IMG/VR virus record: IMGVR_UViG_3300049847_000281
Strand: one strand, 5' to 3'
Length of the DNA: 64,000 nucleotides
From: an uncultured virus (IMG/VR IMGVR_UViG_3300049847_000281)
Taxonomy: Duplodnaviria; Heunggongvirae; Uroviricota; Caudoviricetes
Numbering within the stretch: position 1 is the stretch's first letter; each line of letters opens with the position of its first letter. Shown piece after piece: positions 11,997 through 42,490 of the stretch. Under the pieces are notes generated by a model. The model saw only the letters and a program-made list of their open reading frames with translations. It was not told where the DNA came from and made no database searches. The position numbers and the translations under genes are program-made.

Positions 11997-12182
11997 ATGA
12001 AAAATCAAACCACCATTAACTTCACCAAAGAGAAAGTTGAAGAACTGCGTAAGTTGTACAACCATGCTGTTGAAAACAAAATCGAACTGTTTCAGTTTGA
12101 GGGCAACGACATCCTTACCGAATTCGCAAAGTACATGCTACAGTACCTCGATTCAAAGTTTAAAAATTCCAAACTCAACTAA
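11997..12182 (+). CDS. cassette 16 small protein
   Basis: 61 aa after repeat 16. Confidence 0.8.
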   Translation: MKNQTTINFTKEKVEELRKLYNHAVENKIELFQFEGNDILTEFAKYMLQYLDSKFKNSKLN

Positions 12183-13500: not shown

Positions 13501-13535
13501 TAACCACTAACCACTAACCACTAACCACTAACCAC
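13501..13535 (+). repeat. (TAACCAC)x5 tandem repeat abutting a start codon
   Basis: Five exact 7-mers, then ATG 13536. Confidence 0.95.
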
Positions 13536-13778
13536 ATGTCAAAAAACGACCAGCTCCAGCAAGCCATCGAAAAACAATTTCCCGACTGCATGGTGTTCTT
13601 CTCCGATGAGCCGTTCACCATCCTCGACAGCGATGTGAAGCCGCTAACTATCAAAGAGCAGCAGGTGTTCATCAAAATTTACCGCGCACAGGGCAAGCAC
13701 AAGCCCGTGCTGCGCTTTTCTCTCCGCTGCGGGGCATTGCCGCGCAGATTCAAGAAGGTGATTATAATCGAATCCTAA
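13536..13778 (+). CDS. hypothetical protein
   Basis: 80-aa ORF. Confidence 0.65.
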   Translation: MSKNDQLQQAIEKQFPDCMVFFSDEPFTILDSDVKPLTIKEQQVFIKIYRAQGKHKPVLRFSLRCGALPRRFKKVIIIES

Positions 13779-23992: not shown

Positions 23993-24718
23993 TTAAAATG
24001 GTAAGTCGTCTGTCGGTTCCGGGTCGGGCTGAGTTCTTGCCAGCGATGAAGCATCACGCACCACATTGCTCATCATCTCATGGTGTGTTGCTTCAGGTTC
24101 TGCCGAAGCGTCTTCTCCCAGCACTTCAGGAACATGTAGGGCGTTACGCTGCGCAACGGCATTTTTTATTTTCAGCTCTACGTTTTCACGTACCAGCATC
24201 TGCATCAGGAATTCTATCTGTGCGGTGTCGTCCCACATCTGCTGCCCCTTAAAAGTCACCTGCGTCATCTCCGGCAAGCCGTTCGGCTCATCCTTGGTGT
24301 ACGCACGCGGCACAGGCGTACCGAACGGCTGGTCTAAGTACATCGAAGAGCGCTTGGACTCTACGCCATCGTTGACGACAACCTTGTACCACGGCTTGAA
24401 AACCACCTCTTTAGAGAAGTCTACATTAGGTACTGTATACAGGAATCCTTTCGCGTAACCGCTGGAGAGAATCATTCCAATCTGATACTCGTCTCTTCCG
24501 TCCTGCACGACAAGCACAAGCTCTTTGCCGAACTTACCCTCGCGGGTGAAGAGACCTGACACGTAGCCGCTCAGGTTGTCATACCGAAGCTCCCACACAT
24601 CTCTGCCTTCTGCGTTAGTGCGCTTAGTCGCGCCTTTGGTGTCTTCCGCTGCCTTGCAGACGAATTTGCCCTCAAGAATGTTGAGGTAAGTTTTTGGTGC
24701 ATTGTTTCCGAGTCCCAT
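23993..24718 (-). CDS. putative single-stranded DNA-binding protein
   Basis: Beta-rich core and acidic tail ending DDLPF. Start MGLGNN has an A-rich leader; an in-frame alternative start exists at 24871. Confidence 0.6.
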   Translation of the reverse strand: MGLGNNAPKTYLNILEGKFVCKAAEDTKGATKRTNAEGRDVWELRYDNLSGYVSGLFTREGKFGKELVLVVQDGRDEYQIGMILSSGYAKGFLYTVPNVDFSKEVVFKPWYKVVVNDGVESKRSSMYLDQPFGTPVPRAYTKDEPNGLPEMTQVTFKGQQMWDDTAQIEFLMQMLVRENVELKIKNAVAQRNALHVPEVLGEDASAEPEATHHEMMSNVVRDASSLARTQPDPEPTDDLPF

Positions 24719-24872
24719 GTTTTCTGTTTCTGTTTTTTTAGTGGTTAGTGGTGATAGTATGTAATTAGGGTCATTGAGTTCTGCTATTTTTTTGGCAAGA
24801 GCCGGAGCGTGCTTGTTCCATATTGCTCTGCTCTGTGAAGCACTGAATCGCTTGAACAATCCCTTGCTCATT

Positions 24873-25178
24873 TTATTTTCCGAATGCCTTTCTTCTGCCG
24901 CTGTAACTTTTTTGAAACTCGATGATGTCATTCATCGTGTACCATATCTTCTTCCCGATTTTCGTTGAACGCAATCCGGCAATACGATAACGCGACAAAG
25001 TTTTCTTGCTGCACTTCAACAGCTCCACAGCTTTCTCTTCCGGGATTGGCTCCTCGCCACCCACAGCTTTCTCCATCACGTCACGCGCTGATGCTGCCAC
25101 CAGCCCGGCAATTTGGTCTACAAAAAGCTGCGCCTGTGCAGCCGGGATTTCGAATATCACTTTAATGCTCTCACTCAT
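24873..25178 (-). CDS. excisionase-like HTH_17 protein
   Basis: EKAVELLKCSKKTLSRYRIAGLRSTKIGKKIWYTMNDI. Confidence 0.75.
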   Translation of the reverse strand: MSESIKVIFEIPAAQAQLFVDQIAGLVAASARDVMEKAVGGEEPIPEEKAVELLKCSKKTLSRYRIAGLRSTKIGKKIWYTMNDIIEFQKSYSGRRKAFGK

Positions 25179-25461
25179 CGTCTTCTGTCTTTGGATTATT
25201 TTCTTCACGCAATTTTTTCATCACCTTCTCTGCTTCTCTTACGCGCTTCTTTTTTTCTTCACGTAAATCATTCAGCAACGCGATGGCTTCCTTTATCACC
25301 TCCGGGTTCTTGAATTTATTTACGGTTACGTAACTCAATGTGCAGCCACGCTGTTGCAGCCGTTGAAAAATCACCCGCTGGCTCCCGTATGGAAGCATCG
25401 CTTTTACCTCTAACACAGAGGCATCGTCCAGCGGCATCATTTTTAGGGTATCGATGTTCAT
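25171..25461 (-). CDS. Cro-position small DNA-binding protein
   Basis: First gene of the leftward operon, divergent from the repressor. Confidence 0.5.
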   Translation of the reverse strand: MNIDTLKMMPLDDASVLEVKAMLPYGSQRVIFQRLQQRGCTLSYVTVNKFKNPEVIKEAIALLNDLREEKKKRVREAEKVMKKLREENNPKTEDDE

Positions 25462-25550
25462 AACTTTTTTATTGGCGTTACATCCTGCAAAGGATATTCT
25501 TGATTATATTTGTGCGATATTCTTTGTTTGCAACATTAACAGGAACGGAT

Positions 25551-25581
25551 TACAATAATAGTACAAAACAATACAATGCAC
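25551..25581. promoter_or_regulatory. candidate operator: TACAA direct repeats at ~10-11-bp period
   Basis: TACAA at 25551, 25562 and 25572; the 22-mer recurs at 31719-31740 (20/22). Confidence 0.55.
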
Positions 25582-25655
25582 AAAAAGTCAAGAGAGAGTT
25601 ACCTTAAAATACCCTCTTCTTTGCCTAAAGAATTAACTATCAATATAAAAAAATC

Positions 25656-26297
25656 GTGTGTCAAGTGGTTAACAGAGAAGTATTAAACAGCAAATTTTTA
25701 AGGTCGCTGGAGCAAGTCCGCAAAGACTTCCCGCAGCACAACAAAACTTTCATTGCACAAAAGGTGCTGGAGACACAGCTCAACGTGCTCAACGGAATCA
25801 TCAACGGCACACGAAAAGTTACACCGATACAGCTGGAGCGCTACATCGCTTTCTTCAAGCTGAACAAAAATTATTTCTACGCACAGGAGACAGAACTGTA
25901 TCACGAAAAGCCGGAGCCGCTCTTCATCGACAACACCATCTTCCCTGAAGTTAAAGCGCGCTACAAAACGGTGCGCACGTACCTGCAAAAAACACAGGAG
26001 GAGATTGCAAGAGAAATCAACCGCAACCAAACACAGTGGTCGCAAATTGAAAACGGAGTCATTTCTCCGGGAGACGACATCAAGTCGATGCTGCACAACA
26101 AATACAACATCGCTTACGAATATCTTATTGACGGAGTTCTGCCCATCGTTAAAGGAGAAGCCACCGTCTTCAACATCAACAAGCAGGACGAGCGCATGCA
26201 CGATACGCTGCGAGAGGTTAGCTCTGTGTTAGAACAGCCGACCGCAAGAATGCAGGTATATGTAGAGCACACCAAGAGAGAGGATGCTCACGCATAA
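25656..26297 (+). CDS. repressor-like XRE protein with two HTH regions
   Basis: YKTVRTYLQKTQEEIAREINRNQTQWSQIENG...IAYEYLIDG plus an N-terminal HTH-like segment; divergent position. Confidence 0.75.
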   Translation: MCQVVNREVLNSKFLRSLEQVRKDFPQHNKTFIAQKVLETQLNVLNGIINGTRKVTPIQLERYIAFFKLNKNYFYAQETELYHEKPEPLFIDNTIFPEVKARYKTVRTYLQKTQEEIAREINRNQTQWSQIENGVISPGDDIKSMLHNKYNIAYEYLIDGVLPIVKGEATVFNINKQDERMHDTLREVSSVLEQPTARMQVYVEHTKREDAHA

Positions 26298-26303
26298 GCG
26301 TCC

Positions 26304-26376
26304 GGTCTCGTAGCTCAACTGGATGAGCATCTCGCTACGGACGAGAAGGTTAAGGGTTCGAATCCCTTCGAGACCT
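26304..26376 (+). tRNA. tRNA-Arg(ACG)
   Basis: Acceptor GGTCTCG/CGAGACC, anticodon arm TCTCG-CTACGGA-CGAGA, T-arm AAGGG-TTCGAAT-CCCTT; no CCA. Confidence 0.92.
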
Positions 26377-26384
26377 CAGAAACG

Positions 26385-26626
26385 AGATGACCACAGGATA
26401 ACCATAAAAAAAAGTCAAGACTCAACTAATTAAGAATCAACACATCAATCCGTCTTGAATAATACACATGGCAATTATATTTCAGTACATGTCGATACAA
26501 ATCAAAGACATTCGTATATTTGCACCGCGATTAAATCAAAATCAAAGACAAACGAACTTACAACAAGACTACAAAAGACATGCAGGATGACCATAGGATG
26601 ACCAAATTTAAAAAACAGGATGACCA
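26385..26626 (+). mobile_element. attP-like region with integrase arm-type direct repeats
   Basis: GATRACCA-type repeats at 26385-26404 (x2), 26583-26604 (x2) and 26616-26626, with AAATCAAAGACA repeats between, directly upstream of int. Confidence 0.6.
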
Positions 26627-26654
26627 AATAATTTAACTCTTAAATACACACACA

Positions 26655-27920
26655 ATGGCTACTTTAAAATTTATCATTCGCACAGCTGAAAACAAAGACG
26701 GCAGCTACTCAATCCGTCTCCGGGTAAGCAAAAATAAAGAGACGTTTTTTGTCCCCACAACATGTACCATCTTCAACCCCGACAAATGCTGGGATAAGGC
26801 AAAAGGGGGTGTCACCAAAGCGTGCCCGAACGGGAACGAACTAAACTTCCAGCTCACCGAACTGAAGCAGAAAGTTCAGCGACAAATCTTCGACCTTGAG
26901 CGCGACAACCCCGGTATCAGCGCCCTTCAAATCCGCGACATCATCCAGCGCAAAGAAGCAGATGTGGATTTCATAAAAATGTTCCGCGCACACATCGAAA
27001 CAAAAAGAACTTTAAATAGCGCCACGTACCTTACCTTCCACACACATCTTCACAACATCGAAGAGTACATCAACGGAAGGCGCTTGAAAGCCGGGGAAGA
27101 TTCCAAGCCGCTGCCGATACATAAAATTACACCGTACTGGCTGGCTGATTTTCAAAGATGGTGTCTCGAAAAAAAAGGGTTGGTGCAAAACACAGTTGGT
27201 ACACACCTCACCGACATCCGCACCATCATCCTTCAGGCGATTGCAAACAAGTACATCAAGCGCGAAGCAAATCCATTTCTTGAATTCAAAGTAAGCCGTG
27301 GAGACCGCAAGAAAAAAATTCCGCTCACCGCTGAGGAAGTCGAAGCTATCAGAACGCTGGCTACCGATGAGCGCTTGGACTGGTGGTCTCACCACACCAA
27401 GAACGCCTTTATCTTCGCACATCTCAACGCAGGGATGCGTACATCAGATGTTACGATGCTGAGATGGAGAGATGTCACCAATCAGTTCTACACTCCGCGC
27501 AAGACAAAAAACAAAATGAAGGTGTTGCCACTGCTGCCGAACACTATCTCGCTTGCCATCCTCAAGGAGTACGAACACCGCAACACTTCCCCTGATGCGT
27601 TTGTATTTCCGTTCATGGACAGAGAACTCAAGTGGGCTGAAACGAAAGAGCATGCAGAGATGTATAAAATTAAAGACACCACACGCTACCTCAACACGGC
27701 TCTCAAGAAGCTGGCTCGTTGTGCCGGTATTAACAAGGACATCTCCACGCACATCGCACGCCACAGCTTCGCATACAAAGCAATGCAGGGCGGATTAACT
27801 GCCGTGCAGCTTCAGGGTTTATTCAACCACAGCTCTACGCAGATAACGCAGAGCTACATGAACAACATCATGAACGCAGACTACACCAAGGGGCTGCTCG
27901 ACCGCGCTGTCGGTGCGTAA
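26655..27920 (+). CDS. int: tyrosine integrase (Bacteroidota arm-binding / SAM-like / catalytic)
   Basis: N-terminal KDGSYSIRLRV; catalytic GMRTSD, HIARHSFA, FNHSS and TQSY (R-H-R-H-Y). Confidence 0.93.
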   Translation: MATLKFIIRTAENKDGSYSIRLRVSKNKETFFVPTTCTIFNPDKCWDKAKGGVTKACPNGNELNFQLTELKQKVQRQIFDLERDNPGISALQIRDIIQRKEADVDFIKMFRAHIETKRTLNSATYLTFHTHLHNIEEYINGRRLKAGEDSKPLPIHKITPYWLADFQRWCLEKKGLVQNTVGTHLTDIRTIILQAIANKYIKREANPFLEFKVSRGDRKKKIPLTAEEVEAIRTLATDERLDWWSHHTKNAFIFAHLNAGMRTSDVTMLRWRDVTNQFYTPRKTKNKMKVLPLLPNTISLAILKEYEHRNTSPDAFVFPFMDRELKWAETKEHAEMYKIKDTTRYLNTALKKLARCAGINKDISTHIARHSFAYKAMQGGLTAVQLQGLFNHSSTQITQSYMNNIMNADYTKGLLDRAVGA

Positions 27921-27924
27921 AAAA

Positions 27925-27946
27925 ATCTGTTAGTTGTTTAACGGAT
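27925..27946 (+). other. hairpin containing the reverse complement of the cassette-repeat core
   Basis: ATCTGTTA-GTTGTT-TAACGGAT; TGTTAGTTGTTTA (27928-27940) is the reverse complement of TAAACAACTAACA. Confidence 0.7.
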
Positions 27947-27947
27947 A

Positions 27948-27973
27948 GGGGGAGAGAAATCTTCCCCTTTTTT
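27948..27973 (+). terminator. intrinsic terminator after int
   Basis: GGGGGAGA-GAAA-TCTTCCCC followed by a T-tract. Confidence 0.8.
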
Positions 27974-28262
27974 ATTTTACCTTCAGGCAACCCGAATAGT
28001 CAATCTTAATTTCCGTGCTGTCTGCCGATGCCTTCACCAAGTAGAAACGCACCTGAGAGCCGCTGTAATTGATTACAGCACCGTTGGTGAGCAAGGGGAT
28101 TAAACTGTCCGTCCTCAACATCAGCGATGCCGTACCGGAAACACAGAGCGTGTTGTTCACGTAACTTACCGATGGCGCATCAGCAGCCGTCTCTACCGAT
28201 ACAAATTTTTTCGAACAGCTCGTCAGTGCCGCAACAGAGAGTAATAACAAAATTTTTTTCAT
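27972..28262 (-). CDS. lipoprotein
   Basis: MKKILLLLSVAALTSC lipobox. Confidence 0.75.
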   Translation of the reverse strand: MKKILLLLSVAALTSCSKKFVSVETAADAPSVSYVNNTLCVSGTASLMLRTDSLIPLLTNGAVINYSGSQVRFYLVKASADSTEIKIDYSGCLKVK

Positions 28263-28273
28263 GGGAATATATT

Positions 28274-28465
28274 TTAGTTTGCGGTTATGCGAAGTTGTTT
28301 GTTTAAAATAATTATTTCTCCGCGTTGCTCTGCGGTCACAATCACCTCTACGCTGCAACGCAATTCTTTTTGTAACTCTTCGAGCTTTGCGAGAAAAGTC
28401 TTCTCGCGTATTTTTTTTTCTTCCAAAATTTGCTTTTGAGCGTCTTCTAATTTTTGTGTTGCCAT
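28274..28465 (-). CDS. small coiled-coil protein (tail-fibre chaperone-like)
   Basis: 63 aa, helical, directly after the fibre gene. Confidence 0.5.
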   Translation of the reverse strand: MATQKLEDAQKQILEEKKIREKTFLAKLEELQKELRCSVEVIVTAEQRGEIIILNKQLRITAN

Positions 28466-28470
28466 TGGTA

Positions 28471-30225
28471 TCAGGTATAGAGCGGGACTTTATAAACTGT
28501 GCCGAGAATGTTGATTGACATCCATCGGTTAGGGTCTCCGAGAAAGTTCGTTGCTGCGCTGCCGTAGTAATTCACAACTGCTGCTCCGATAGAAGTAGCA
28601 GGAGCTGTCGCATTATCAACAGCTACCAACACATTCTCGCGGGTCGTTCCTGTGCGGGTAAAAAAAAGATTGGTTCCGTTGTATTCAAAGTCTCCTGCCG
28701 CAGCCGTGGTACGGTTTGTCCCGCTGGTTAGTCTCAGTGGAGCAATCGATGTAGTGCCTGCTCCCAGTTGCAAGTAAGCATTAGGAACAGATGCTCCCAT
28801 CATAATTCCTATCGAGCCGTTATTGATGGCAGAGAGCGCTACAATGTTTCCGTTACTGCCTACAATTATCTGCACCGCCTGCGTACTGGTCGTGCCGTTT
28901 GCAGTCGTGCCTTTTAATTTCAGCTGACTGCCTACAGCAGTTCCGCCAATCACAAGTGGCGTGGTAATGTCTGTAGTAAACGTAGGTGATGTTCCGAACA
29001 CCGCTACACCGCTGCCTGTTTCATCAGTCAGCGAAGTTGCTAATTGTGCAGAAGTAATACTGCCTGTAGCTGTTCCGTAAAGCGTTCCGCTGGTCGGTAA
29101 TGTAACGGTCGTAGTTCCTGTTACTGTAACGGTCGTTGCAAAAGCTCCGCTGTAAGCGAGGTTCCCTCCTACCGTTATCGTTGAGCTGCCGTTATTTACT
29201 CCCGTGCCTCCGTAAGTTCCTGTTACTAACGCTCCGTTCCATGTACCTGTTGTTATCACTCCGGTGTTTGCCGTCACCACCAATCCATTAAACGATGTCA
29301 CGCCTGTCAAAGCGCCCAGCGTCAACGTCAATGCTGGAGTAGCTCCTGCACTAAAGCTGCCGCTCACCCCTTGGCTCGTCACCACAGTCAGCGATGTTAC
29401 ATACGTGCCTGCCGCCTGATACTGCGGAATGTTTAACGTGTTTGAAGACAGTGTGGCTGCGCCTGATGTCCCTGTGGTTGTCAGTGATGTTATCCTGTTT
29501 GTATAGGCAGTATTCCAATTCGTTTCTTCCGTGGTGGTGGGTATCACGTAGCCGCTGGTTAGCGTCACAGCAAAAGTTCCTGATGTAGTCACCGGACTTC
29601 CCGAAATCGACAAGCCTGTCGGAACGGTCATCGCTACAATGGTCACAGTGCCAACATTCCATGAACGGTCAGCCGATAAATCATAACTTGTTCCGTTGAT
29701 TGAGAGTGTACGCGAATCAGGTACATAACCTGTTACTGCTGTAAGGTAAGGCACATCATTCGTGAACTGCGAGATGAGCATCGATGCAAATTCCGCTTTC
29801 ACTCCGCTGGCATCGCTCGATAAAATAATCGTAACGCTGTTCTGCATGCGCACGTCTGCGGTCAGCGTGCCCGTAGTTTCAGTTAAAGTTACAGTGTCAG
29901 TATTTGCAAGTGCAGTAATAAATCCTGATGCTGCGCTCCAGTGTGTGTCATAGTCCGCATCACTCACTTTGGTGAGCGCCTGCCCGGTCGTTCCTCCTGC
30001 GGGAACCCCGTGCCCGTCTTCGTATAAGTTGTATTGCCCCTGCGCGAGATAGTCCGTGGTCACCGTCACGTTGTTCGCTATCATCGTCCACGTGTTGCCG
30101 TAGGGTACGGTAACCTGCTTCCACTTGGTGCGTGCAGCAATATCAATATACTCGATGCTGTTGTAAGCAGTCACAATTCCTGATGGCGCTCCGCTTCCGA
30201 ATATATTTTTGCTGACGATGTTCAT
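28471..30225 (-). CDS. tail fibre protein
   Basis: 584 aa, T/G/S-rich, with VPAGGTTGQALTK, RTLSINGTSYDLSADRSW and GTVTxVAMTVPTGL fibre repeats. Confidence 0.8.
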   Translation of the reverse strand: MNIVSKNIFGSGAPSGIVTAYNSIEYIDIAARTKWKQVTVPYGNTWTMIANNVTVTTDYLAQGQYNLYEDGHGVPAGGTTGQALTKVSDADYDTHWSAASGFITALANTDTVTLTETTGTLTADVRMQNSVTIILSSDASGVKAEFASMLISQFTNDVPYLTAVTGYVPDSRTLSINGTSYDLSADRSWNVGTVTIVAMTVPTGLSISGSPVTTSGTFAVTLTSGYVIPTTTEETNWNTAYTNRITSLTTTGTSGAATLSSNTLNIPQYQAAGTYVTSLTVVTSQGVSGSFSAGATPALTLTLGALTGVTSFNGLVVTANTGVITTGTWNGALVTGTYGGTGVNNGSSTITVGGNLAYSGAFATTVTVTGTTTVTLPTSGTLYGTATGSITSAQLATSLTDETGSGVAVFGTSPTFTTDITTPLVIGGTAVGSQLKLKGTTANGTTSTQAVQIIVGSNGNIVALSAINNGSIGIMMGASVPNAYLQLGAGTTSIAPLRLTSGTNRTTAAAGDFEYNGTNLFFTRTGTTRENVLVAVDNATAPATSIGAAVVNYYGSAATNFLGDPNRWMSINILGTVYKVPLYT

Positions 30226-31483: not shown

Positions 31484-31499
31484 GGGAATAATTTTTTTT

Positions 31500-31544
31500 C
31501 AAAAGTAAACCCATTACAACTGCTCTATACGGGATGAAGTATAA
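31500..31544 (-). promoter_or_regulatory. late promoter 2: 19-bp palindromic box + 18 nt + TACTTTTG
   Basis: TATACGGGATGAAGTATAA at 31526-31544, identical to 60972-60990; -7 element at 31500-31507 (minus strand). Confidence 0.8.
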
Positions 31545-32137: not shown

Positions 32138-35100
32138 TTACTCTTCCTTAGCAGCTTCCACTTCGTCTAACGTCTTCTGAAAGTTTCCGTCCGGGTCAAA
32201 CATTTCTTTCTCTTCGTCCGTCATTTTCGAAAACAGTTGCTGCCTGTCTGCAAACGGCAAACGCTGAAACATGTACACGGCAGAGTTCTTCTTCTCTTTG
32301 CCAAACGCGCTCTGCAAATCTTTTATCTGTGACGGGCGCAGCTTGCCTTCTTTCTCCGCATCGTCCATCAGCTGCTGCGCGGTCTCATCATCATCGTTCT
32401 CATGCGCTGCGCGTATCTTCCGTTTCAGCTCCGCTTCTTCACGGTCTGTATACGGTTTCATGCCCTGATTGCGCATCTCAAACAAATCGAAAATTTTATT
32501 CTCAAGAGGTGTGTTAGAGATGTAACGTGGCGCTTTGCTGAAACCCATAATCGCCTTCGTCTTGTCCATCACCGAGAGCTGTCTGCCTTCTTCGGCATCT
32601 TTGCCCAGCGAACTCATGAAGATTGGCTCCAGCCCTCCCTCTAACAGAAACTTACCTATCTGCTTCGCCTGCTCTACAACCGGGTCGTTCGGATTACTTA
32701 TCTCTACTCCATAGTAATCTTCGTTCTTCAGCAGGTCTGCGGTCATGCCAAACTCAGGCGCTAACTTGTTCGTCAGATACGTTCCAGTTCCCTTCACCAA
32801 CCCGCGACCTTCTATCTCTCTGTTCGTTGCAAAAAATTCTTTCATCATGGATGGTATCTGTATACGCTCCGTGGTGTTTCCGTCTTCATCTTTTTGTGAG
32901 GCGGGGTAGTAGTAATCGATGAGGCTGTTCGGCTTCTGTCCTGTTTGTAGATATGTCATCAGCCCTCCTATCATTCCCACTACCACAGGGTATGTGGCTG
33001 CAAAAAGTATTCTGTCGGAAATGGCTGGCTTGCCAGTCTTGATGGCATTTTTTATATCCGCAGGAATGTCTTTTACCGCTCCGCCAAACTCGCGTATCGT
33101 TCCCAAGTTCCATCCCAGCGACAACGTAGACGCTGTTCCCAAATCACGTATCGCTCGTTTCCAAAACAGGTTGTCATAGACGAGCTGTCCGAAGCGGTTG
33201 TCCATCGAGTCCCACAACTTTTGCAGGTGCTTGTCCTGCTCCAAGGTGTTGGGTTCTTTTGTCGATGCCATGTAGTCGTTGGCAAGTTTCAGGTAGCTGT
33301 TTATCTTCAGGCGACCTACGTAACTCTCTAAGATTATTTTCTGCGCCACACCCATAGCGGCATGCACGGCTCTGATGCCTGCGCCCGGTATGTTATCGTT
33401 CTTTAACTCTTGCAGCGCTTTACTAAACTGTCCGTTCAATCCCATCTGCCATACTTCTGACAGGTGCGGTCTGCCGCCTGCACGCTTTATCAGGTCTATG
33501 GCTTCTGCCATCTCCGGGTCTTTGATTGGCTCTCCGGCTTGCGCCATATCCCATGCTTTCATCACATCGCTCTTGCCTCTCTGAGATAAGATGTCTGTTA
33601 TCGGAGATACTGGTGTTTTAGCAAGGTTCGCCAACGCACCCATCACATCTCCTCTGCCCATCTTCCTTAACGCAAGCGTCATCTGCGTAGCTACATCACT
33701 GATAGATGTACTCACAATGTGATAACCGGAAAGCAGCTTGATGCTCACTATGAAATTCTTAGCCGCCATGTTGCCACGGAAGAGCTTGCCCATCATCCCC
33801 GGAGCGCCATAGAGAGAAGGGGAGAGGTAGTTGCTCATCACTACATCGGCTCCGGCTGCAAACACAGGCATGCCTTTTCCGTCAGGAGAATAGATTTTCA
33901 GGCGGTTGTAGTTGTCGTCCGTCAGACGCTTGAAGCCATCGGGTATCGGGTACTTGCCTGTCTCTGCATTAGGGTACACGTACTTCACAAGTCCTTGCGT
34001 GCTCATCTTCTTCATGAAGTCGTTCATCGCCTTGCGCTGCCAGCCGCTGAACTCACGCATCATCACTATCTCTTCAGGGTTGCTGGTCTTTAGCTTCATC
34101 CCGGCATCCATTCCCGTTTTGATGAAGTCTATGGTACGCATCTTTTCAAATGCCTGCCTGCCCATCTTAGATACTGCTGTGCCGAAAAACTTCTCTGCTT
34201 TCTCAGGGGCTTCCCACAGGTGAGGAAAATAGTTTTCAATATAGGCGGCTCTGTCTTTGTAAGTAAGCTCAAGCTGATGGGCTGCTTCAAGGCGCTCTCT
34301 GTATTCTTTCGCAAGCGATGCCATCACCAAGGCGCGGTCGTGGCGGTAGCCGATGGCTTTAAAAGCATCCACTCCTATCTTGCCACTCTCCATCTGATTG
34401 ATGAACTGAATCTTGTCGTCTTCCGCAACGGTGTCCCACCACTGGTGTCGCGCACGCATAGTCGCCCACGCTGCATCTTTCATTTGTGCTACATCGGCAA
34501 GGTAAGGTCTTAGTAACGTCTTCGCTTCGTTCTTAGGCGCGCCTGTGTTATACCACTGCTTGATGTTGCGCTGCACGTCTTCGTAAAAAGTTTTCAGTCC
34601 GGCAATGCCTGCTTCTACGTTAGGCATCACGTCACGGCTGATGAAGCCTGATATACCGGGGATGCCCAGCTTCTCGGTGTAGGCGGGGTCGCTGGATTTA
34701 GGTAGTTCGTTAGGTGTAGGTGGTAATTCTCCTTGTTCCGCTGCGGTTGTAGGCGTAATCTCGGTTGCCGAGCTTGTCGAAGCAGCAACTTTCTTTTCTG
34801 CCCCCAGCAACCTGTCAAACACCTCCCTTACCTCCGGTGTCAGCTCCACATCTATATCCGAACCTGCCAGCGTTTTGTAAATAGTTGTCAGCCATTTCGC
34901 AAGATTACTGAACGCATTCTTCAGTGCCGATGTAGGCGCTTTGCCTTCACGCAGATACTTTTCAAATCCGCGTGCAAATTTTTCTTCTGCTGCCGTGTCC
35001 CATAGTCCGTTCTTTGCACCTGCCCATTTTTCTATCGTTCCCAAATCACGCGCAAAGTTTTCATTGTGCTTGGCAAGCTCACTAAGCATCCTGCGTCCCA

Positions 35101-38100
35101 CGTGTCCACTCAGCTCATGCGCCAGCGTAGCGATGTTAGCTCCGTTAAAGAAGTGGGCTGTTGCCTGCACATCATTCTGAAACTGTACCGCCCCGCGCAC
35201 CTCTCCGTCCTGCTTCTGATAGGCAATAGTCGGAGAGTTCCTGTCCGCATCCGTTAGCTTGGTGCGATACCACATGAAGCCGTTATCATCACGCACCAGC
35301 TCCAAGTCAGGGCGCAGCTTTTTAAGAATCGGCAACACCGTTCCTCTGTGGTTGTTTATCACTTCCTTCCGCTCGTCAGGAAGTTTTTCAAACTCTTCAT
35401 CACTTACTTCTGTCGGATGCGATGGTAATTCGGGTTTTGCAAATTCCTCTCCAAACGGCAGTTCCAGTTGGTTCGGGTCTACAGGTTCTTCAGGTTCCGC
35501 TTCTCCGTACTCACTTGGCTGCAAGTATTCTATAGGGTCTTCATCGCTGGCGTAAAAGCGGTCACTGTCACCGGGGTAATCCCACGTATTGCTGCGACCA
35601 CTTATATCGCTATCGCTCATGTTGTCGTAGCTGCGGCTCATATAATCCCTCATCTCATCGTCAAAATCACTGGGCGATGCCATCGGAATATCTCTGTCCT
35701 CTTCCAGCTCTTCAATTTTATCAAGCATCTCCTGCTTCACGTCTTCAGCGCCTTCCACATCATCCGTGTCCCAGTTTTCAATCTCACTGCGCGTCATCTC
35801 GCTGTTCCAGTTGCCCACCTGCTCTTCGAAATCTTTTTTTATTGCAGCATAATTTTCATCTTTCGCAGCCAAGTGATAGTCAAGAGAAGTGGTCGGTTCG
35901 TCATAGTCCCTTTCCTGCTCTTCAATTTTCTCCAGCATCAACTCTTTCAGACGCTCCATTCCGTAACCATCCCCGTCTATGCTTTCAATATCTTCACGGG
36001 TATAGTTCGCATTCCACGCGCTTCTTCTTCTCTGCGAATCGCTTCTGCCGAATGCGCGACCTAACGAATACTGCATTTCGCTCCAGTCATTATCAATCAT
36101 GTCATCAATATAACTACTGCGGCTATAGCTTTCCACATCATCTTCCGGTAGTACAGATATGCCCGTATCACTGTGGTCAACGACAAGATGAGTAGTTCCA
36201 TCAATTTCTATTTTGTCGCCTGTCTCCAAACCACTCTCATCACCACTCTCTATGGTGTACGGCATCTCACCCTGCGGCTTGCTCTTCAGTTTTAGTTTCT
36301 CCGGCTTGTAGTATTGTTCCACTACACCGAGCGTATACGGTGCGGGGAACAGCACTTCGTTCGCCCCGCGCTGCACGGCTTCTGCTATTGCCTCACGCGC
36401 CTGCCGCATACGGTAGGTGTCCTTTGTATACGATGCAACAAATTGTTTCTCAAACGGAGTCAGTTCTCTGTCCTTCCTATTAGCCATCTCCCGTAATTTC
36501 TCTTCATGTTTTTGCGTGGCTTCTTCAACAGCTTTGTGATATTTTTCCGATAGAGCAGTTCGCTCTTGCTCAATTTCGTTTTCAATTTTCTGTCTTCCTT
36601 TTTCACGCGCTGCACGCACTTGCTTGTCTGCTTCCGCCCTCCGCGCATCATCTCCGTCACGATAGTCTTTCTTTAAATTATTCCATTCATCGAAGTTAAT
36701 ATCATTAAGAACATCCATCCGAAGCAGATGCTCGGCTCCAATCCGGGCATCTCCGATTACAGTTCGGGAATACTCCTTTCCGTTTATTACTACAGACACT
36801 ATAGTGCTTATATCGCCACCTCTCGAATTGCTTTCCTGACGGTATATTATTTTACGCGCACTTTCCGGCAACAAGGGCAGAACTTTGTTGTTAATAAAAT
36901 CAGCGTTGTATTTAGCGAGACTTGCGACATACTTTTTCTGAATGTGCTCATTCGTCTCCTCGTCATACTTCGTCAGCGGTTCCTCCAAGTCGCCCACCTT
37001 CTCCTCATGCTCCTGCTTCAGCTCGTTCAGCTCGTCAATAAACTTCTCATTTACATTCGTCACCTTATCACCTTTGTGTATCAAACCCATCAGCGCATCT
37101 TCAAACGTAGGCGCTGCTATGCCCTTAGCACTAAGCTCCGTCCGGTACTTGTTGTATTCAAGCGAGAGCTTAAACTCATCTTCATCACGCCCCGACTTGT
37201 CAAACTTTTCCTTCTCGTCCGGGTTCATCTCCAGCCACTCGTCAAACTTTTCCTTCTGATGTTCTTTCAGTATTTTTTGAAACACATCGCTTTGCTGCTC
37301 CGGCACATATAACTGTCCGGCTTCTGCACGATACCAATACCTGTTGTGCCCGTATAAGCCTATCGGCAACGCCCCCGCTGCCTTGCGCGCCTCAAATTCT
37401 TTTACCCAGTCTTCCGCTCCTTGTCGTGTGGTGTTGGCGCTGCCAATGTGTTCATTCACCTCTGCCTGCGTCCATCCTGAATGTGGTGTCACTCCTTTTT
37501 CTATGGCAATAAACTGGTCGCCATACTGCCGCACTTCATATTCCTTGTCCGCCCGTTTGTTTGGATTAAACTCGTCACCAAAATGCCCTTCCACACCGTG
37601 TGTAATAGGGGTGTTAAAAATTACCGTTTGCTGCGTGCCATAGACATTTCGTTGTCCTGTAAAATTACTTAGCCCGTAGTCATTATACTTAGACGAATAA
37701 ATCCGCTCCAGCGGCATTATCTTCTCCTCTACAGCAGCTCTGAACCTGTTAAAATTTATCCGCTTGGCGCTCACAAACTCCGGCTCATTCAGCGTTTCAC
37801 GTATCAGCTCCTTCTCAATTTCTTTCCCACGGCTTTTCAGCAAATCCATTATCTGCTGCGGACTCACCTCGCGGTTTTGTAATTGCTCAAAAGTCTTATC
37901 GTTGAAGATAGAAAGCGTGTATCGGTTCAGCTTTATATTGCCGGGCAATGCTGCCTGATGAACTACAGGAAGAAGAGAACCCTCCTGCTGCCTGAGCACA
38001 TTGTCTATGCCGAGCACACTAAGGTCGCCCTGTTGTATTTTCTTTAAAAAAGTTTCGTAAAATGTTTTTGCCCCTGCGGGTTTGTTCTTATCCCATGTGG

Positions 38101-41100
38101 CAGCTAACGCATCGTTGAGCTGCATCTGCGCATCTATCTGCGCATCACTCATAGGTTTCTTTCCTCCGGGGGAAACAAGGATGCCTGCATCGCGCAAGCT
38201 CACAAGCGAGTCTTTTACTTTCTCGCGTGTCATCGGAGAGTTTAGCTCTCCGCTTTTGTCTGTATCGACTGCCTTTTGCTTCGGCTGTTTATTATCAGCT
38301 CCGACATCATTTGTGCCTCCGATGCCTTTTTCTTTTGATACCCTTCCCGCTTTGTCTTGGCGAACGCCTTGAACCACACTCCCTCTTTTCCGGGATTCTC
38401 CTTTTTGTATTGGTGGTAAAACTCCTTCTGCTCCTCCGTCATTCCCAGTATGTCCCGCTCCTCCTCCGTCATCGCTGAGAGCTTCTTTGTCCATGCCGCC
38501 ATTTTTTCCGGGTCTTCTAAAAAGGAAGTCTCTTTGTTCGGGAGTGAGCTGGAATTTGTCTGCGACTTGTCTGAGTTTGTTTTCATCTATCTCTATGGGT
38601 TTAGGTTCTGTAAGAGGCTTACCTTCAAAATTGGTGTGCTCAAAGTTACGAATTAAAACGTCATCTCCAAAATGCTCCTTCAGCCAGCTTGCGCGGTTAT
38701 TGATAGACCCCGCTACTTTCTCGTACTGTGTGATAGGAACAAGTCGTCCCGTGCGTAATCCACGGTCAATGTTACTTTTGAAGGCACGCTCAGGATGAGA
38801 GTAAAAAATACTGAACTCCGTCTTGTAACCGTTTTCGTGAGCGGCATCAATCAGCGCCTTGAATCGTTTGGAGTCATTGGTAGTGCCGTCAAAAACAATA
38901 GCGTGGGGTTCTTTTGCAAGCAAAACGCGAGTCTTTCCGGTTGCAGGTAAGCCTGCTGCAAAAATTACTTTATCGACCTTCCCTTTGTTCCGCTTCAGCG
39001 CCTCCTGATAAATTTCATCGGTTAAAATCTGCCCCGCTTTCTTGTATGCTACCACATTGGAGCGGTCATACCCTATTTCAAAGAGCAGGTCGCGCACAGC
39101 ATCGGGGTCTATATGATTACCGTTTTCGGACAGATACTTATTTATCAGGCGCTCTTTGTTGTCGGTTACAAACTTTATCTGTTCTGCTTCGGGCATAATC
39201 GCAGCTGGCTCTTCATTCTCTGCACCGCCCACAATCTTTTCCGCTTCCGTAATACTCTTGTCCAGCACCGCCTTGCGCTCAACAGCTTTCTTGATGTCGC
39301 CATTCTTCCATCCGCGTATCACCGGAGCGTTCACAGTCGCATAGCGCGCAGCATCGAAAAACAAATCGTTTACCTTCTGTAGCTCTTCCGGTGTTATTTT
39401 TCCATCCTTCGCCAGCTTGCGTGCCTTCGCTATCAGGTCTACAACTTTTTTGCGCGTAGGCGCATCGATGCCGTCATTTATTGGTTTGGTTCTGCCTGTG
39501 TTCAGCAGGTCGCCAAAAACTTTGTCGTTGTACTCCCGTGTCGCCAACGGATTTTCTGCATCATGAATCTTTTCTTTAAAAATGTTTTCACGGTGTGTCT
39601 CTGCTGTAGCCGGAGGCGCATAGTCGCTGTTCGGGAAACTCTTTTCCTTCCATGCCCTAAGCTGCTTCGCATCATCATGCAAGCCCACGCGGTCATACTC
39701 CTTAGCCATCTCTTCGAACTGCTTTTTTTGGTCTGCGGTGTACACGCGCTTGCCTGCCGGGTTTAACTCAAAGCCGTAGGGCTGTTTCTTATCGGCAGGC
39801 TGCTGCACTTTTACTGTCTCTTTTTTCTCAGTCAGTGCAGGCGCAACCTCTTTCTTCTTCTCTTCCGACTTAGACTTTTCCTTAGAACTCACCAACTCCG
39901 TCCTCTTCGGCAGCCCTTGTTCCTCTAAGTATTTGTTGATAATAGCAAGTTTTTTCTCCTTCGCAAACTTTTGGTCAGGGTGGTTGCTTCCAAATTTTTC
40001 AATAATAGTTCCGTTTGCTTTTCGCTCTCCTACTAAGTCCCCCACCGTGTTGTCGAGTTTCGGATTAGCTATTGATACGAAATAACTTTTGCCGTTGTAT
40101 TTCACTTCACCCACCTGCTCCTTGTCACGCAGCGCACGGTTAATATCTTCCTGTGTGATGGGCTTCGCTTCGGTGATGCCAAGCTCTCCAAGCGTCACAC
40201 TCGCTTCGGTTTTATCTTCGATAGGTATAATGTGCTCCTTGTCGTTTGCGTCAACAAAAACATACTCTCCGTTGTCGTTGCGGTCTAAGCTGCCAACTTC
40301 TCCTTTGTACATCACGTCTCTGCCCATAGCTGCATCCTTCAGCTTTGTGTCGGCAGTAAATTTCTTAGGCGCAGTTTCCTCGTCTCCGTATTTAAAAGCA
40401 AGCGCTTCTTTTCCGGGATTAAAATGAGAACCTTCCGGTGCGGTCACTTCGTTCGTTACGTTTGCCTGCCGTTGGCGGTAGCCCTCAAGCTCCACATGTT
40501 CTTCAGGCGTGCGCCCGGTGTTTAGCTCAAGCTCGTCAGCCCGACTTTGTTCTTCTGCACTTAACGGGTCTTCAATCTTTAGCCCGTATGCTTCAGCCAG
40601 CGCCTCCGGGTTGTCGATGTTCTTCTGAAGAAACCTTAGTTCGCGCTTGCTCTTATATCCCTCGAACCCTTCCGGTTCTGCGCCTTGCAGCTCCTGCATT
40701 TTGTCGTGCGCAGCTGTAACAATGTTGTCGGTGGTAATTTTCTTGGCAGTGCCGGGCTTCTTTAGAAAGTCACCTTCGGCTTTTATGCGGTCTATGGCAA
40801 GTTGCACCTGCTGATGGGCTGCTATGTATTTAGCAAGCGTTGCTCCGCTGGCATCGTCTTTGTTTTGTTTGTATTCGGCTATGCCGCCCTTCAGAGCATC
40901 TCTTAATCCAACCAACGCGGGAATTGCTGCGCCTATCACAAAGCCACTCTCCATTGCCTTGTCTACATCCTGACTAATTTCCTGCGCTACGTTATAGGTC
41001 TTCTGCGCGCCCCAATTCTGCATCGCTTTCATTGTGCCCATCTGCACAGCAGTGGTTACGCCTCCTTTAGCCGTGTTGCTTAGATATTCTCCGATGCTTC

Positions 41101-42490
41101 CTCCGGTAAGTTTGTTCAGCTTATTGATAAACGGAAGTTCGGCAACAAGAAACGGAGAGCCACTAAGCACCCCGTACCCAAAAGCATCCATTGCCACATC
41201 ATTCGGATTTTTTCCTTTCAGAGATTGATATTGTTTTGTGGCAGCTTCGAGATACGACTGGTCGCCACCATAGGTCTCTTGAAAAAATTGAGCGAGAGGC
41301 TTACTGTTTACGTCCGTTGTAAGTTTCTTGGCTACTTCATGTGCCTGAATTCCATTTTGATTTCCGGCTATCAGCGTTGCTGGCAGGTGCTCCCATAGCT
41401 TTTCCTTTAGCCCCTTCTCGGCTGCCGACCCTACGAGCTGCCCAATCTCGCTGTTGGCTCCGGCAGCTTTAGCCGCATCAATAAGCATATTCTTATCTAC
41501 AGCTCCTGTGGCAAGTCCCACAGCTCCTTCTACGCCCATCTTTACAAGCCCTCCGCCTAAGTACATTCCGGCAAGACTTCCTGCGGTCTCCGGCAGGTCG
41601 TGTGCCAAAAATTCGTCTTCATATTTTTTATCTGTCTTAGCAGTAAGGCGGTCGTCAATAAATTTGTTTGTGCCTGCGCCTGCCTGATAAATAAATTTCT
41701 CATCAGCTGAGGCATGTGCCATCTGTTCGTTAACAGGCAATCCCTCTGCCTTTTGCAGCGCAGCAGTTCCACGGTCGAGTAGCGCTGACATATAGCCAAG
41801 CCCTTGGTCAATCTCGCCCGGAGTTTTTACAACACCCTTAACTAACGAGCGCCAAGCAGAACCCACGCGCTCAAGATTGTCTTTCTTCTCCACGGGCTTA
41901 GACGTGGTGCCACCTGTCAGATAATCCAGCACATCTTTGTTGGCTGCCTGTGCATGCGCCACCTGCTCGTCTGTGAGTTTCAGGTTTTGCTTCAGGTCTC
42001 CGAAAAATTTTTGTAGTGCAGGAGCACCGTTAGGATTATCGCGTCCGAACAGTTGTATATTTTTATTCAGCTCATCACGTACTACCTTATCTAATTTAGG
42101 TTGAGTCTTCACCTGCCGGAACGCAGGCAAACTCGCCACAGGCGGAGAGTTCAGATAGTCGTCAACTTCTTTATTGCTAAGACCGCTGCCCTTTAGCTGC
42201 CCGATAAGACCTTGTGCATTCGCCATCGCATTAGGCGAAGCGTCCGTAAACTTATCGTCTTTTGCGTACAGGAACTCGGTTATTCCTTCGAGAAACTTTT
42301 GCTTTTCCTCCGGGGAAGGTAACCGTGATGGAGATGTGGATGGGGAACCACCGCTTGTACCATCTGTAAAAACTTCCCCGGTAGGTTGGTCTTGACTTTT
42401 TTTTTTAGAATCACTAAGCAAGCCCAGCGGGTCATGCTCGGCAGCAGGAGCTTCTAACAATCCTAATGGGTCTTGAGTGTCCTCAGCCAT
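32138..42490 (-). CDS. giant (3450 aa) polyvalent internal-virion/ejection protein
   Basis: Last gene of the virion operon. Contains a zeta-toxin-like P-loop (AAGLPATGKT), a zincin-like TLAHELSGH motif, an acidic region and a helical C-terminal region. Confidence 0.8.
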   Translation of the reverse strand: MAEDTQDPLGLLEAPAAEHDPLGLLSDSKKKSQDQPTGEVFTDGTSGGSPSTSPSRLPSPEEKQKFLEGITEFLYAKDDKFTDASPNAMANAQGLIGQLKGSGLSNKEVDDYLNSPPVASLPAFRQVKTQPKLDKVVRDELNKNIQLFGRDNPNGAPALQKFFGDLKQNLKLTDEQVAHAQAANKDVLDYLTGGTTSKPVEKKDNLERVGSAWRSLVKGVVKTPGEIDQGLGYMSALLDRGTAALQKAEGLPVNEQMAHASADEKFIYQAGAGTNKFIDDRLTAKTDKKYEDEFLAHDLPETAGSLAGMYLGGGLVKMGVEGAVGLATGAVDKNMLIDAAKAAGANSEIGQLVGSAAEKGLKEKLWEHLPATLIAGNQNGIQAHEVAKKLTTDVNSKPLAQFFQETYGGDQSYLEAATKQYQSLKGKNPNDVAMDAFGYGVLSGSPFLVAELPFINKLNKLTGGSIGEYLSNTAKGGVTTAVQMGTMKAMQNWGAQKTYNVAQEISQDVDKAMESGFVIGAAIPALVGLRDALKGGIAEYKQNKDDASGATLAKYIAAHQQVQLAIDRIKAEGDFLKKPGTAKKITTDNIVTAAHDKMQELQGAEPEGFEGYKSKRELRFLQKNIDNPEALAEAYGLKIEDPLSAEEQSRADELELNTGRTPEEHVELEGYRQRQANVTNEVTAPEGSHFNPGKEALAFKYGDEETAPKKFTADTKLKDAAMGRDVMYKGEVGSLDRNDNGEYVFVDANDKEHIIPIEDKTEASVTLGELGITEAKPITQEDINRALRDKEQVGEVKYNGKSYFVSIANPKLDNTVGDLVGERKANGTIIEKFGSNHPDQKFAKEKKLAIINKYLEEQGLPKRTELVSSKEKSKSEEKKKEVAPALTEKKETVKVQQPADKKQPYGFELNPAGKRVYTADQKKQFEEMAKEYDRVGLHDDAKQLRAWKEKSFPNSDYAPPATAETHRENIFKEKIHDAENPLATREYNDKVFGDLLNTGRTKPINDGIDAPTRKKVVDLIAKARKLAKDGKITPEELQKVNDLFFDAARYATVNAPVIRGWKNGDIKKAVERKAVLDKSITEAEKIVGGAENEEPAAIMPEAEQIKFVTDNKERLINKYLSENGNHIDPDAVRDLLFEIGYDRSNVVAYKKAGQILTDEIYQEALKRNKGKVDKVIFAAGLPATGKTRVLLAKEPHAIVFDGTTNDSKRFKALIDAAHENGYKTEFSIFYSHPERAFKSNIDRGLRTGRLVPITQYEKVAGSINNRASWLKEHFGDDVLIRNFEHTNFEGKPLTEPKPIEIDENKLRQVADKFQLTPEQRDFLFRRPGKNGGMDKEALSDDGGGAGHTGNDGGAEGVLPPIQKGESRKRGSVVQGVRQDKAGRVSKEKGIGGTNDVGADNKQPKQKAVDTDKSGELNSPMTREKVKDSLVSLRDAGILVSPGGKKPMSDAQIDAQMQLNDALAATWDKNKPAGAKTFYETFLKKIQQGDLSVLGIDNVLRQQEGSLLPVVHQAALPGNIKLNRYTLSIFNDKTFEQLQNREVSPQQIMDLLKSRGKEIEKELIRETLNEPEFVSAKRINFNRFRAAVEEKIMPLERIYSSKYNDYGLSNFTGQRNVYGTQQTVIFNTPITHGVEGHFGDEFNPNKRADKEYEVRQYGDQFIAIEKGVTPHSGWTQAEVNEHIGSANTTRQGAEDWVKEFEARKAAGALPIGLYGHNRYWYRAEAGQLYVPEQQSDVFQKILKEHQKEKFDEWLEMNPDEKEKFDKSGRDEDEFKLSLEYNKYRTELSAKGIAAPTFEDALMGLIHKGDKVTNVNEKFIDELNELKQEHEEKVGDLEEPLTKYDEETNEHIQKKYVASLAKYNADFINNKVLPLLPESARKIIYRQESNSRGGDISTIVSVVINGKEYSRTVIGDARIGAEHLLRMDVLNDINFDEWNNLKKDYRDGDDARRAEADKQVRAAREKGRQKIENEIEQERTALSEKYHKAVEEATQKHEEKLREMANRKDRELTPFEKQFVASYTKDTYRMRQAREAIAEAVQRGANEVLFPAPYTLGVVEQYYKPEKLKLKSKPQGEMPYTIESGDESGLETGDKIEIDGTTHLVVDHSDTGISVLPEDDVESYSRSSYIDDMIDNDWSEMQYSLGRAFGRSDSQRRRSAWNANYTREDIESIDGDGYGMERLKELMLEKIEEQERDYDEPTTSLDYHLAAKDENYAAIKKDFEEQVGNWNSEMTRSEIENWDTDDVEGAEDVKQEMLDKIEELEEDRDIPMASPSDFDDEMRDYMSRSYDNMSDSDISGRSNTWDYPGDSDRFYASDEDPIEYLQPSEYGEAEPEEPVDPNQLELPFGEEFAKPELPSHPTEVSDEEFEKLPDERKEVINNHRGTVLPILKKLRPDLELVRDDNGFMWYRTKLTDADRNSPTIAYQKQDGEVRGAVQFQNDVQATAHFFNGANIATLAHELSGHVGRRMLSELAKHNENFARDLGTIEKWAGAKNGLWDTAAEEKFARGFEKYLREGKAPTSALKNAFSNLAKWLTTIYKTLAGSDIDVELTPEVREVFDRLLGAEKKVAASTSSATEITPTTAAEQGELPPTPNELPKSSDPAYTEKLGIPGISGFISRDVMPNVEAGIAGLKTFYEDVQRNIKQWYNTGAPKNEAKTLLRPYLADVAQMKDAAWATMRARHQWWDTVAEDDKIQFINQMESGKIGVDAFKAIGYRHDRALVMASLAKEYRERLEAAHQLELTYKDRAAYIENYFPHLWEAPEKAEKFFGTAVSKMGRQAFEKMRTIDFIKTGMDAGMKLKTSNPEEIVMMREFSGWQRKAMNDFMKKMSTQGLVKYVYPNAETGKYPIPDGFKRLTDDNYNRLKIYSPDGKGMPVFAAGADVVMSNYLSPSLYGAPGMMGKLFRGNMAAKNFIVSIKLLSGYHIVSTSISDVATQMTLALRKMGRGDVMGALANLAKTPVSPITDILSQRGKSDVMKAWDMAQAGEPIKDPEMAEAIDLIKRAGGRPHLSEVWQMGLNGQFSKALQELKNDNIPGAGIRAVHAAMGVAQKIILESYVGRLKINSYLKLANDYMASTKEPNTLEQDKHLQKLWDSMDNRFGQLVYDNLFWKRAIRDLGTASTLSLGWNLGTIREFGGAVKDIPADIKNAIKTGKPAISDRILFAATYPVVVGMIGGLMTYLQTGQKPNSLIDYYYPASQKDEDGNTTERIQIPSMMKEFFATNREIEGRGLVKGTGTYLTNKLAPEFGMTADLLKNEDYYGVEISNPNDPVVEQAKQIGKFLLEGGLEPIFMSSLGKDAEEGRQLSVMDKTKAIMGFSKAPRYISNTPLENKIFDLFEMRNQGMKPYTDREEAELKRKIRAAHENDDDETAQQLMDDAEKEGKLRPSQIKDLQSAFGKEKKNSAVYMFQRLPFADRQQLFSKMTDEEKEMFDPDGNFQKTLDEVEAAKEE
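38242..38502 (-). CDS. candidate overprinted 86-aa gene inside the giant ORF
   Basis: Alternative frame MAAWTKKLSAMTEEERDILGMTEEQKEFY... with an AAAAA-ATG leader; the host frame here is a Gly-rich low-complexity linker. Confidence 0.45.
   Translation of the reverse strand: MAAWTKKLSAMTEEERDILGMTEEQKEFYHQYKKENPGKEGVWFKAFAKTKREGYQKKKASEAQMMSELIINSRSKRQSIQTKAES

Follow-up and report, generated by a model that had tools for sequence, protein, structure and literature searches.

Genome context and the lysogeny block

The window, i.e. the whole stretch of 64,000 nt analysed here (an uncultured virus of the Caudoviricetes, IMG/VR record IMGVR_UViG_3300049847_000281), comes from a divergent crAss-like phage that is temperate and carries a lysogeny block. 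A crAss muzzle C-terminal domain was identified in a 1796-aa protein (45304-50694, minus strand), an SU10-type capsid protein is encoded at 57265-58710 (minus strand), and virion PHROGs are found across 50-59 kb. Other features of the minus strand include an HNH/NUMOD4 homing-endonuclease gene inserted in the structural block (51455-52054), a tRNA-Met gene among the head genes (59852-59926) and, in a 3450-aa protein of the virion block (32138-42490), a Zeta-toxin-like kinase domain (residues ~1098-1282; Pfam E 3.8e-7; PDB 6eph E 6.8e-6). Two segments upstream of genes (31484-31543 and 60928-60987, both minus strand) have in common ACTTCATCCCGTATA, ~17-18 nt and then TACTTTTGAAAAAAAA, which looks like a late-promoter motif with an upstream factor site. 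Shine-Dalgarno sequences are absent before most start codons, while several operons are preceded by TAnnTTTG boxes, which we take to be the Bacteroidota -7 promoter element, so that the host is probably a Bacteroidota bacterium. DNA of the phage is present in two freshwater metagenomes, one of which may be its source, and sequencing run X2 contains the same phage, with 0 differences over 27697-28785; no joints were found in the runs.

The lysogeny block lies on the plus strand and interrupts a long run of minus-strand genes. It begins with an HTH_19 repressor-like gene (25656-26297), with a TATATTTG box upstream (25505-25512), followed by a tRNA-Arg(ACG) gene (26304-26377) and int (26655-27920), encoding a 421-aa tyrosine integrase with Arm-DNA-bind_5, SAM_5 and Phage_integrase domains. 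Direct repeats resembling arm-type sites are found on the plus strand between the tRNA gene and int (26385-26626), as three copies of GGATGACCA at 26585-26626 and two degenerate copies at 26385-26404; this segment beside tRNA-Arg is the probable attP region. It also contains a candidate int promoter box (TATATTTG, 26515-26522), bracketed by two AATCAAAGACA repeats in what looks like an int promoter with operator-like repeats. At its 3′ end int converges on a gene for a lipoprotein-like product of 96 aa (27972-28262, minus strand), with which the late block on that strand ends and whose stop codon abuts the int terminator.

Within this phage group, the lysogeny block appears to be rare and recently acquired. 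Comparison of 26200-28500 with phage records by blastn gave only tRNA matches, in 11 records, nothing was found for the integrase in IMG/VR, and its best homologs (16 proteins) are 23-34% identical. The major capsid protein (MCP) had no match in the phage records by tblastn; homologs at 69-77% identity exist on contigs of 76-78 kb, and relatives in IMG/VR comprise 61 loci with an MCP 34-46% identical. Five complete distant relatives (75-78 kb, two of them with direct terminal repeats) share only structural genes with the phage, and as an int homolog is present in 0/5, the lysogeny block looks acquired.

An array of sixteen leader units and ORFan genes

An array of 16 units, each followed by one ORFan gene, occupies 4449-12004 on the plus strand. 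Each unit consists of GTGATGA(C/G), a hairpin, a core related to TAAACAACTAACA, an AT-rich leader and the ATG of the gene, with cores starting at 4479, 5477, 5723, 6451, 6854, 7240, 7782, 8147, 8659, 9310, 9653, 9922, 10158, 10560, 11161 and 11974. GTGATGA(C/G) often supplies the stop codon of the preceding gene. The hairpin is perfect and differs in sequence and length in each unit (spacer 14-23 nt; -11.0 to -18.6 kcal/mol), its stem being closed by the last AC of GTGATGAC and the GT before AAAC, and the core directly abuts it (0 nt) in 16/16 units. Since a stem of variable length (14-23 nt) joins conserved flanks, the folded form of the unit seems to be what is recognised. The AT-rich stretch between core and ATG measures 17 nt in 9/16 units, 16-19 nt in 13/16 and 10-19 nt overall, and the array genes start with ATGAAAA (14/16) or ATGG (2/16).

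Before the first unit there is no ORF but ~450 nt of non-coding sequence, and no unit follows the last array gene; the units therefore belong to the gene downstream. TAnnTTTG boxes are missing from the units, apart from two chance matches in or beside hairpins, and this absence of a host-type box fits, together with the placement of the units, a leader or translation signal. Pieces of the core also stand directly before other starts (CAACTAAC at 12176, ACTAACAAT at 12834, AAACAACT before 13215 and before 23981 on the minus strand), such CA-rich pieces lying at variable distance from the start codon. In our reading, the core belongs to a CA-rich, unstructured translation leader that comes after a structured hairpin between cistrons. 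Two unrelated viral contigs of IMG/VR (L006 and L075, positions ~304 and ~513) have a terminator-like hairpin followed by (T)AAACAACTAACAATG, with two occurrences in a stretch of ~210 nt; this CA-rich 10-mer thus stands directly before start codons elsewhere too, as would fit a translation signal. Elsewhere in the window, five tandem copies of AACCACT (~13501-13535, plus strand) reach the start codon of the gene at 13536-13778.

None of the 16 array proteins matches Pfam (0/16) or NCBIfam (0/16), and three (3/16) match PHROGs of unknown function; the first array protein has matches of only 23-39% identity, in unrelated phages. Three operator-like repeats, TAAT(T/C)AGCGA and TAGTCAGCGAC, lie at 4020-4115 (plus strand), upstream of the ~270-nt untranslated lead-in of the array and beside a gene (3695-4000) whose 101-aa product weakly matches an Lrs14-type HTH (E 5e-4); this region may together with the gene be the control region of the array. 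An array-like family of intergenic repeats was found in 0/5 complete distant relatives. Scans for the core motif in IMG/VR (at least 116 stretches, plus 48) gave, among the matches listed, single chance matches only, as did motif scans of JGI metagenomes (17 stretches) and species genomes (7 stretches). Loci with two to three copies of the 10-mer proved to be coding tandem repeats or unrelated leaders and were set aside, and the idea of a split leader was dropped when no unit remnant was found upstream of the gene at 25171-25461.

Two hairpins follow the int stop codon

On the plus strand, the int stop codon (TAA, 27918-27920) is followed by AAAAA, a first hairpin (hairpin 1, 27925-27946), a terminator hairpin (27947-27968) and a T-run. 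Hairpin 1 has 9 bp, including two G.U pairs, and a UUGU loop (one of the G.U pairs being added by ViennaRNA, which gives the 9-bp form), and it contains the complement of the array core described below. As plus-strand RNA, 27921-27948 folds at -7.9 kcal/mol (z -6.1), equalled by 0/200 shuffles, compared with -2.5 kcal/mol for hairpin 1 as minus-strand RNA. The intrinsic terminator of int (27947-27978, plus strand), made up of the hairpin AGGGGGAGAG-AAAT-CTTCCCCT and the T-run, likewise gives -14.5 kcal/mol on the plus vs -10.5 on the minus strand, and the region as a whole (27915-27980) gives -23.1 kcal/mol (z -4.1) vs -14.6. This preference of both hairpins for the plus strand arises through G.U pairs and indicates that the folded molecule would be the 3′ end of int mRNA. 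A hairpin immediately before the int terminator, as claimed from the letters alone in an earlier sequence-only reading of this DNA, is therefore borne out by fold energies, by ViennaRNA and by the terminator at 27947-27968.

With Rfam 15 at the gathering score, only two tRNAs were matched in the whole window and nothing at the int 3′ end. No TAnnTTTG box lies inside the int 3′ end or near the site on either strand, so that a short RNA from here would need processing. The one RNA run, X3, yielded contigs over parts of int (27043-27761) and over 24470-24881, none over 27921-27973, and such contigs show neither transcription nor RNA ends.

The int 3′ end carries an exact complement of the array core

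Within hairpin 1, TGTTAGTTGTTTA (27928-27940, plus strand; the anti-core) is the exact reverse complement of the array core TAAACAACTAACA. A scan of the window for TAAACAACTAACA with at most one mismatch gave 18 matches (0.05 expected; 18 reached by 0/100 shuffles), 17 of them on the plus strand between 4479 and 11986 and one, exact, on the minus strand at 27928-27940, which is the sole minus-sense copy. All but one of the plus-strand matches (16/17) are gene leaders, the remaining one (5117) lying inside the ORF at 4509-5429. Nine leaders (4479, 5723, 6451, 6854, 7240, 8147, 8659, 9310 and 11161) are complementary to the int site at 13/13 positions and seven (5477, 7782, 9653, 9922, 10158, 10560 and 11974) at 12/13, while at 8147 the match extends to 16/16 (27928-27943), as CGTTAAACAACTAACA. 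AACAAC, the complement of the GTTGTT assigned to the loop, is present in 15/16 leaders, the exception being AACTAC at 11974. The antisense 13-mer after int, the tally of nine and seven copies, the extension to 16 nt against the eighth copy and the count of AACAAC had all been put forward in the sequence-only reading, and each holds exactly.

Similarity between the int site and the units is confined to this core of 13-16 nt. Comparison of flanks (32 comparisons) revealed no similarity, the lowest p values being 0.007 and 0.053, and a profile of the whole leader (nhmmer) aligned only the core at the int site, with E = 0.28, although this was the best match outside the array. Because the flanks are unrelated, a perfectly kept core is not what a decaying copy of a unit would look like. 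Outside the array, 0.0016-0.0032 copies of the exact 13-mer would be expected on either strand. Under the widest look-elsewhere null, allowing any part of any unit on both strands, an exact match of at least 16 nt was obtained in 3% of 300 Markov-3 simulations (p ~0.03) and one of at least 14 nt in 39%; three unrelated 14-mers matching variable parts of units by chance are indeed present, at 14924, 42188 and 45238. Judged on sequence statistics, the anti-core match is probably beyond chance, with ~0.03 as the estimate under the widest null. The earlier caveat that part of the match could reflect composition is justified to the extent that the shorter CA-rich core pieces noted above (CAACTAAC, ACTAACAAT and AAACAACT) do stand before other genes.

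Proposed pairing between the int 3′ end and the array leaders

The array leaders and the int 3′ UTR would both be transcribed from the plus strand, so that their RNAs are complementary and no new promoter is needed for them to meet. The anti-core lies downstream of the int stop codon and upstream of the terminator, in a stretch of ~50 nt, and is therefore part of the annotated sense transcript, and this placement, between a stop codon and a Rho-independent terminator, is that of 3′-UTR-derived sRNAs. In all 16 leaders the candidate seed has its complement (13/13 or 12/13) in the translation-initiation region, 10-19 nt before the ATG. We give an RNA–RNA link between the lysogeny operon and the early array a probability of roughly 0.35, which makes it our preferred, tentative reading of the site.

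As modelled, the site would act as RNA, within the transcript of the lysogeny block (HTH repressor, tRNA-Arg, int): the 9-bp hairpin of the int 3′ UTR would present a G/U-rich ‘anti-leader’ to the C/A-rich core ~17 nt before the starts of 16 early ORFan genes. The int 3′ end would presumably pair with array mRNA either as part of the int mRNA or as a terminator-protected fragment. Contact might begin at the loop and its flanking nucleotides against AACAAC and continue by strand invasion, and the resulting duplex would cover the unstructured CA-rich ribosome-loading or enhancer region of the leaders, damping translation of the array as a whole while the lysogeny block is expressed. The reverse direction would be equally possible, with abundant array RNA, carrying 16 sites per transcript, acting on the 3′ end of int mRNA during lytic growth. 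Complementarity, strand logic, RNA fold, the terminator and target accessibility were computed here; we further infer that a stable RNA could exist, that both RNAs might pair in vivo and that translation or stability would change as a result.

The sequence-only reading had pictured an sRNA from the int 3′ UTR that silences the translation-initiation region of all cassettes at once, and interaction predictions divide on this point. The targets are open: the leader core is predicted to be single-stranded directly 3′ of a strong hairpin, and opening it costs only 0.4-2.4 kcal/mol in 14/16 units. The seed is not, being sequestered in the stem of hairpin 1 (+7.3 kcal/mol to open), and the anti-core/core duplex is A/U-rich (-12.7 to -14.0 kcal/mol; -20.0 for the 16-nt match), so that only weak net pairing is predicted at 37 C (mean -4.0 kcal/mol, range -5.6 to +1.1). 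This is weaker than for validated sRNA-target pairs, and the accessible seed and favourable energy of a trans-acting sRNA are lacking in the anti-core. The target, at about -30 to -18 from the AUG, lies at or past the limit of the segment in which a duplex normally blocks ribosomes. Stoichiometry is also unfavourable, with one anti-leader per int transcript vs 16 sites per array transcript.

Alternative explanations

Coincidence is nearly as probable an explanation as the RNA–RNA link. Hairpin 1 would then be an ordinary cis-acting structure of the int 3′ end, whose T/G-rich sequence fits the CA-rich core by chance or composition; it could act as a stabiliser or, where int and the lipoprotein gene converge, contribute one half of a composite terminator (A-run, hairpin 1, hairpin 2, T-run). 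The weak predicted pairing, the abundance of CA-rich leader pieces in this phage, the three other chance 14-mers and the leader-profile E value of 0.28 are all in keeping with this, as are the simulations, in which matches to some unit part reach at least 14 nt in 39% of cases and at least 16 nt in 3%, and A5 and T-runs flank the region on both strands, as in a bidirectional terminator. On the minus strand, however, hairpin 1 is too weak for the latter (-2.5 kcal/mol, with an A.C mismatch). Chance would also have had to select the one invariant block of the units, stopping at the edges of that block (0.002-0.003 expected), and to place it within the short stretch, a few tens of nucleotides long, from which a complementary RNA is sure to be transcribed. 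A sense-direction signal, present on the minus strand at the int site, is unlikely. The core would in that case be a promoter element or a protein-binding, RNA-processing or Rho-loading site that ends or processes the late transcript, or that starts an antisense int RNA in lytic growth, the copy at the int site standing after the last late gene and a hairpin and being directed antisense into int. Recognition by a protein would explain the exact conservation, and the order of gene stop, GC hairpin, 8 nt, core and AT-rich GATTTTTTTAC loosely resembles a unit, the hairpins of real units differing in sequence as well; but the hairpin is 8 nt from the core, compared with 0 nt in 16/16 units, GTGATGA and the rest of the leader are absent, no gene follows on the minus strand, neither strand has a TAnnTTTG box nearby, and the G.U pairs favour plus-strand RNA. 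No phage RNA polymerase was detected in the window either, and a promoter for a virion RNA polymerase was rejected, since the 3450-aa protein lacks D-x-D-x-D and Pfam and PDB match only its Zeta-toxin-like domain; according to the available portion of the phi14:2 preprint, the early transcripts that the virion polymerase of that phage produces share no upstream motif. Two related candidates were likewise discarded: a 17th unit of the PeSL type at the int site, where only the core aligns, the hairpin is 8 nt away and both GTGATGA and a following gene are lacking, and an inverted cassette for the lipoprotein gene, the upstream TTAAACAAACAAC being coding sequence of a 63-aa ORF.

Less probable still is a recombination scar, i.e. 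a functionless inverted piece left behind when exchange at a cassette-type repeat brought in the lysogeny block or neighbouring moron genes. The site is located exactly where late and lysogeny blocks meet, the missing int homolog in 5/5 complete distant relatives makes the block look acquired, and PeSL-type units are known as recombination points, according to the available portions of two reports (PMC2839356, PMC4122927). A scar should nevertheless keep one-sided similarity or decay, whereas the match here, 13-16 nt at 100% identity, ends sharply on either side, and no remnant of a unit is present at the opposite edge of the block (25462-25655). A DNA site through which the tyrosine recombinase acts on cassettes, the second proposal of the sequence-only reading, found no support and is very improbable. 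It would make the int-site inverted repeat, ATCTGTTA-GTTGTT-TAACGGAT, a core-type site for integron-like cassette exchange by Int. Inverted arms are present, imperfect and 8 bp long around a 6-bp spacer, an arrangement similar to that of a recombinase core site; all units contain the spacer and one of the arms, and they also pair conserved flanks with a variable hairpin. One position of the arms is a G.T at the DNA level, however, and the arm-type repeats (GGATGACCA) lie upstream of int beside tRNA-Arg (26385-26626), with other matches at up to one mismatch scattered and none near 27921-27973, at most 7 nt being common to the site and the arm-repeat region. Int itself is of the arm-binding phage/ICE type (Arm-DNA-bind_5/SAM_5), with no integron-integrase family among its matches, and 16 kb lie between the site and the array. 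Between the unit flanks GTGATGAC and TAAACAAC, complementarity is limited to AC/GT, unlike in attC.

Implications of the proposed RNA pairing

Returning to the RNA–RNA link, a slightly more doubtful extension of it is that the 3′ end of the lysogeny transcript of a temperate crAss-like phage could serve as a single ‘anti-enhancer’ RNA that keeps the array, as a putative host-takeover array, translationally silent in lysogens or, in reverse, that int is shut off in lytic growth. If so, a single short RNA would, by way of their common leader, govern an entire set of early ORFan genes, tying the lysis-lysogeny decision to translation, beyond repressor-operator control, in a group whose lysogeny and regulation are poorly understood. 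It would provide a second layer of immunity at the RNA level, of a kind not known from Crassvirales or Bacteroidota phages, and what these 16 genes do could be approached simply by altering the anti-leader. Without real pairing, the site would be no more than an ordinary hairpin and terminator at the int 3′ end. A literature search on 3′-UTR-derived sRNAs with prophage, integrase and lysogeny gave, among the matches listed and within the text available for them, no paper directly on this point.

Comparison with known systems

Lying between stop codon and terminator, G/U-rich against C/A-rich targets and with many targets for one RNA, the anti-core is like 3′-UTR-derived sRNAs and like GcvB of enterobacteria, in which a G/U-rich seed silences C/A-rich translational enhancers. 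It is unlike them in lying inside a stem, in its weak predicted pairing and in the probable Bacteroidota host, Bacteroidota being to our knowledge without Hfq, and any RNA species from it is putative. Antisense immunity RNAs of temperate phages, c4 of P1/P7 (which acts on the ant leader) and sar of P22, offer a parallel as lysogeny-transcript RNAs complementary to the initiation region of lytic-side genes, trans action being a proposal in the present case. The int 3′ UTR has no sequence relationship to c4 or sar and differs from them in that the antisense lies in the 3′ UTR of int and its target occurs 16 times, before unrelated ORFan genes 16-23 kb away. In lambda, sib/tI retroregulates int in cis via RNase III on read-through transcripts; the structured RNA described here, just distal to int and overlapping its terminator, could similarly set the fate of int mRNA, but sib acts only in cis and has no complementarity to other phage leaders of the sort seen in the int 3′ hairpin.

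Like integron attI/attC, the locus has single ORFs flanked by repeated hairpins, and an inverted repeat adjoins its integrase gene; it differs in its non-complementary flanks, in that the site, located at the int 3′ end, is separated from the array by 16 kb, and in having an arm-binding integrase. In the available portions of the reports on T4-like phages, PeSLs are composite stem-loop/promoter cassettes whose repeated units are known as points of recombination (PMC2839356, PMC4122927). Compared with the PeSLs described there, the array units have no recognisable host promoter, the conserved part being a CA-rich leader, and the int site is only an inverted core of 13-16 nt without a full unit. 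The array nevertheless shares with PeSLs an intergenic stem-loop with a conserved expression signal around small ORFans, and repeats that can serve as points of exchange (PMC2839356, PMC4122927), and by this analogy, as far as these portions extend, the PeSL cassette is, among the systems described, the one most like the complete array.
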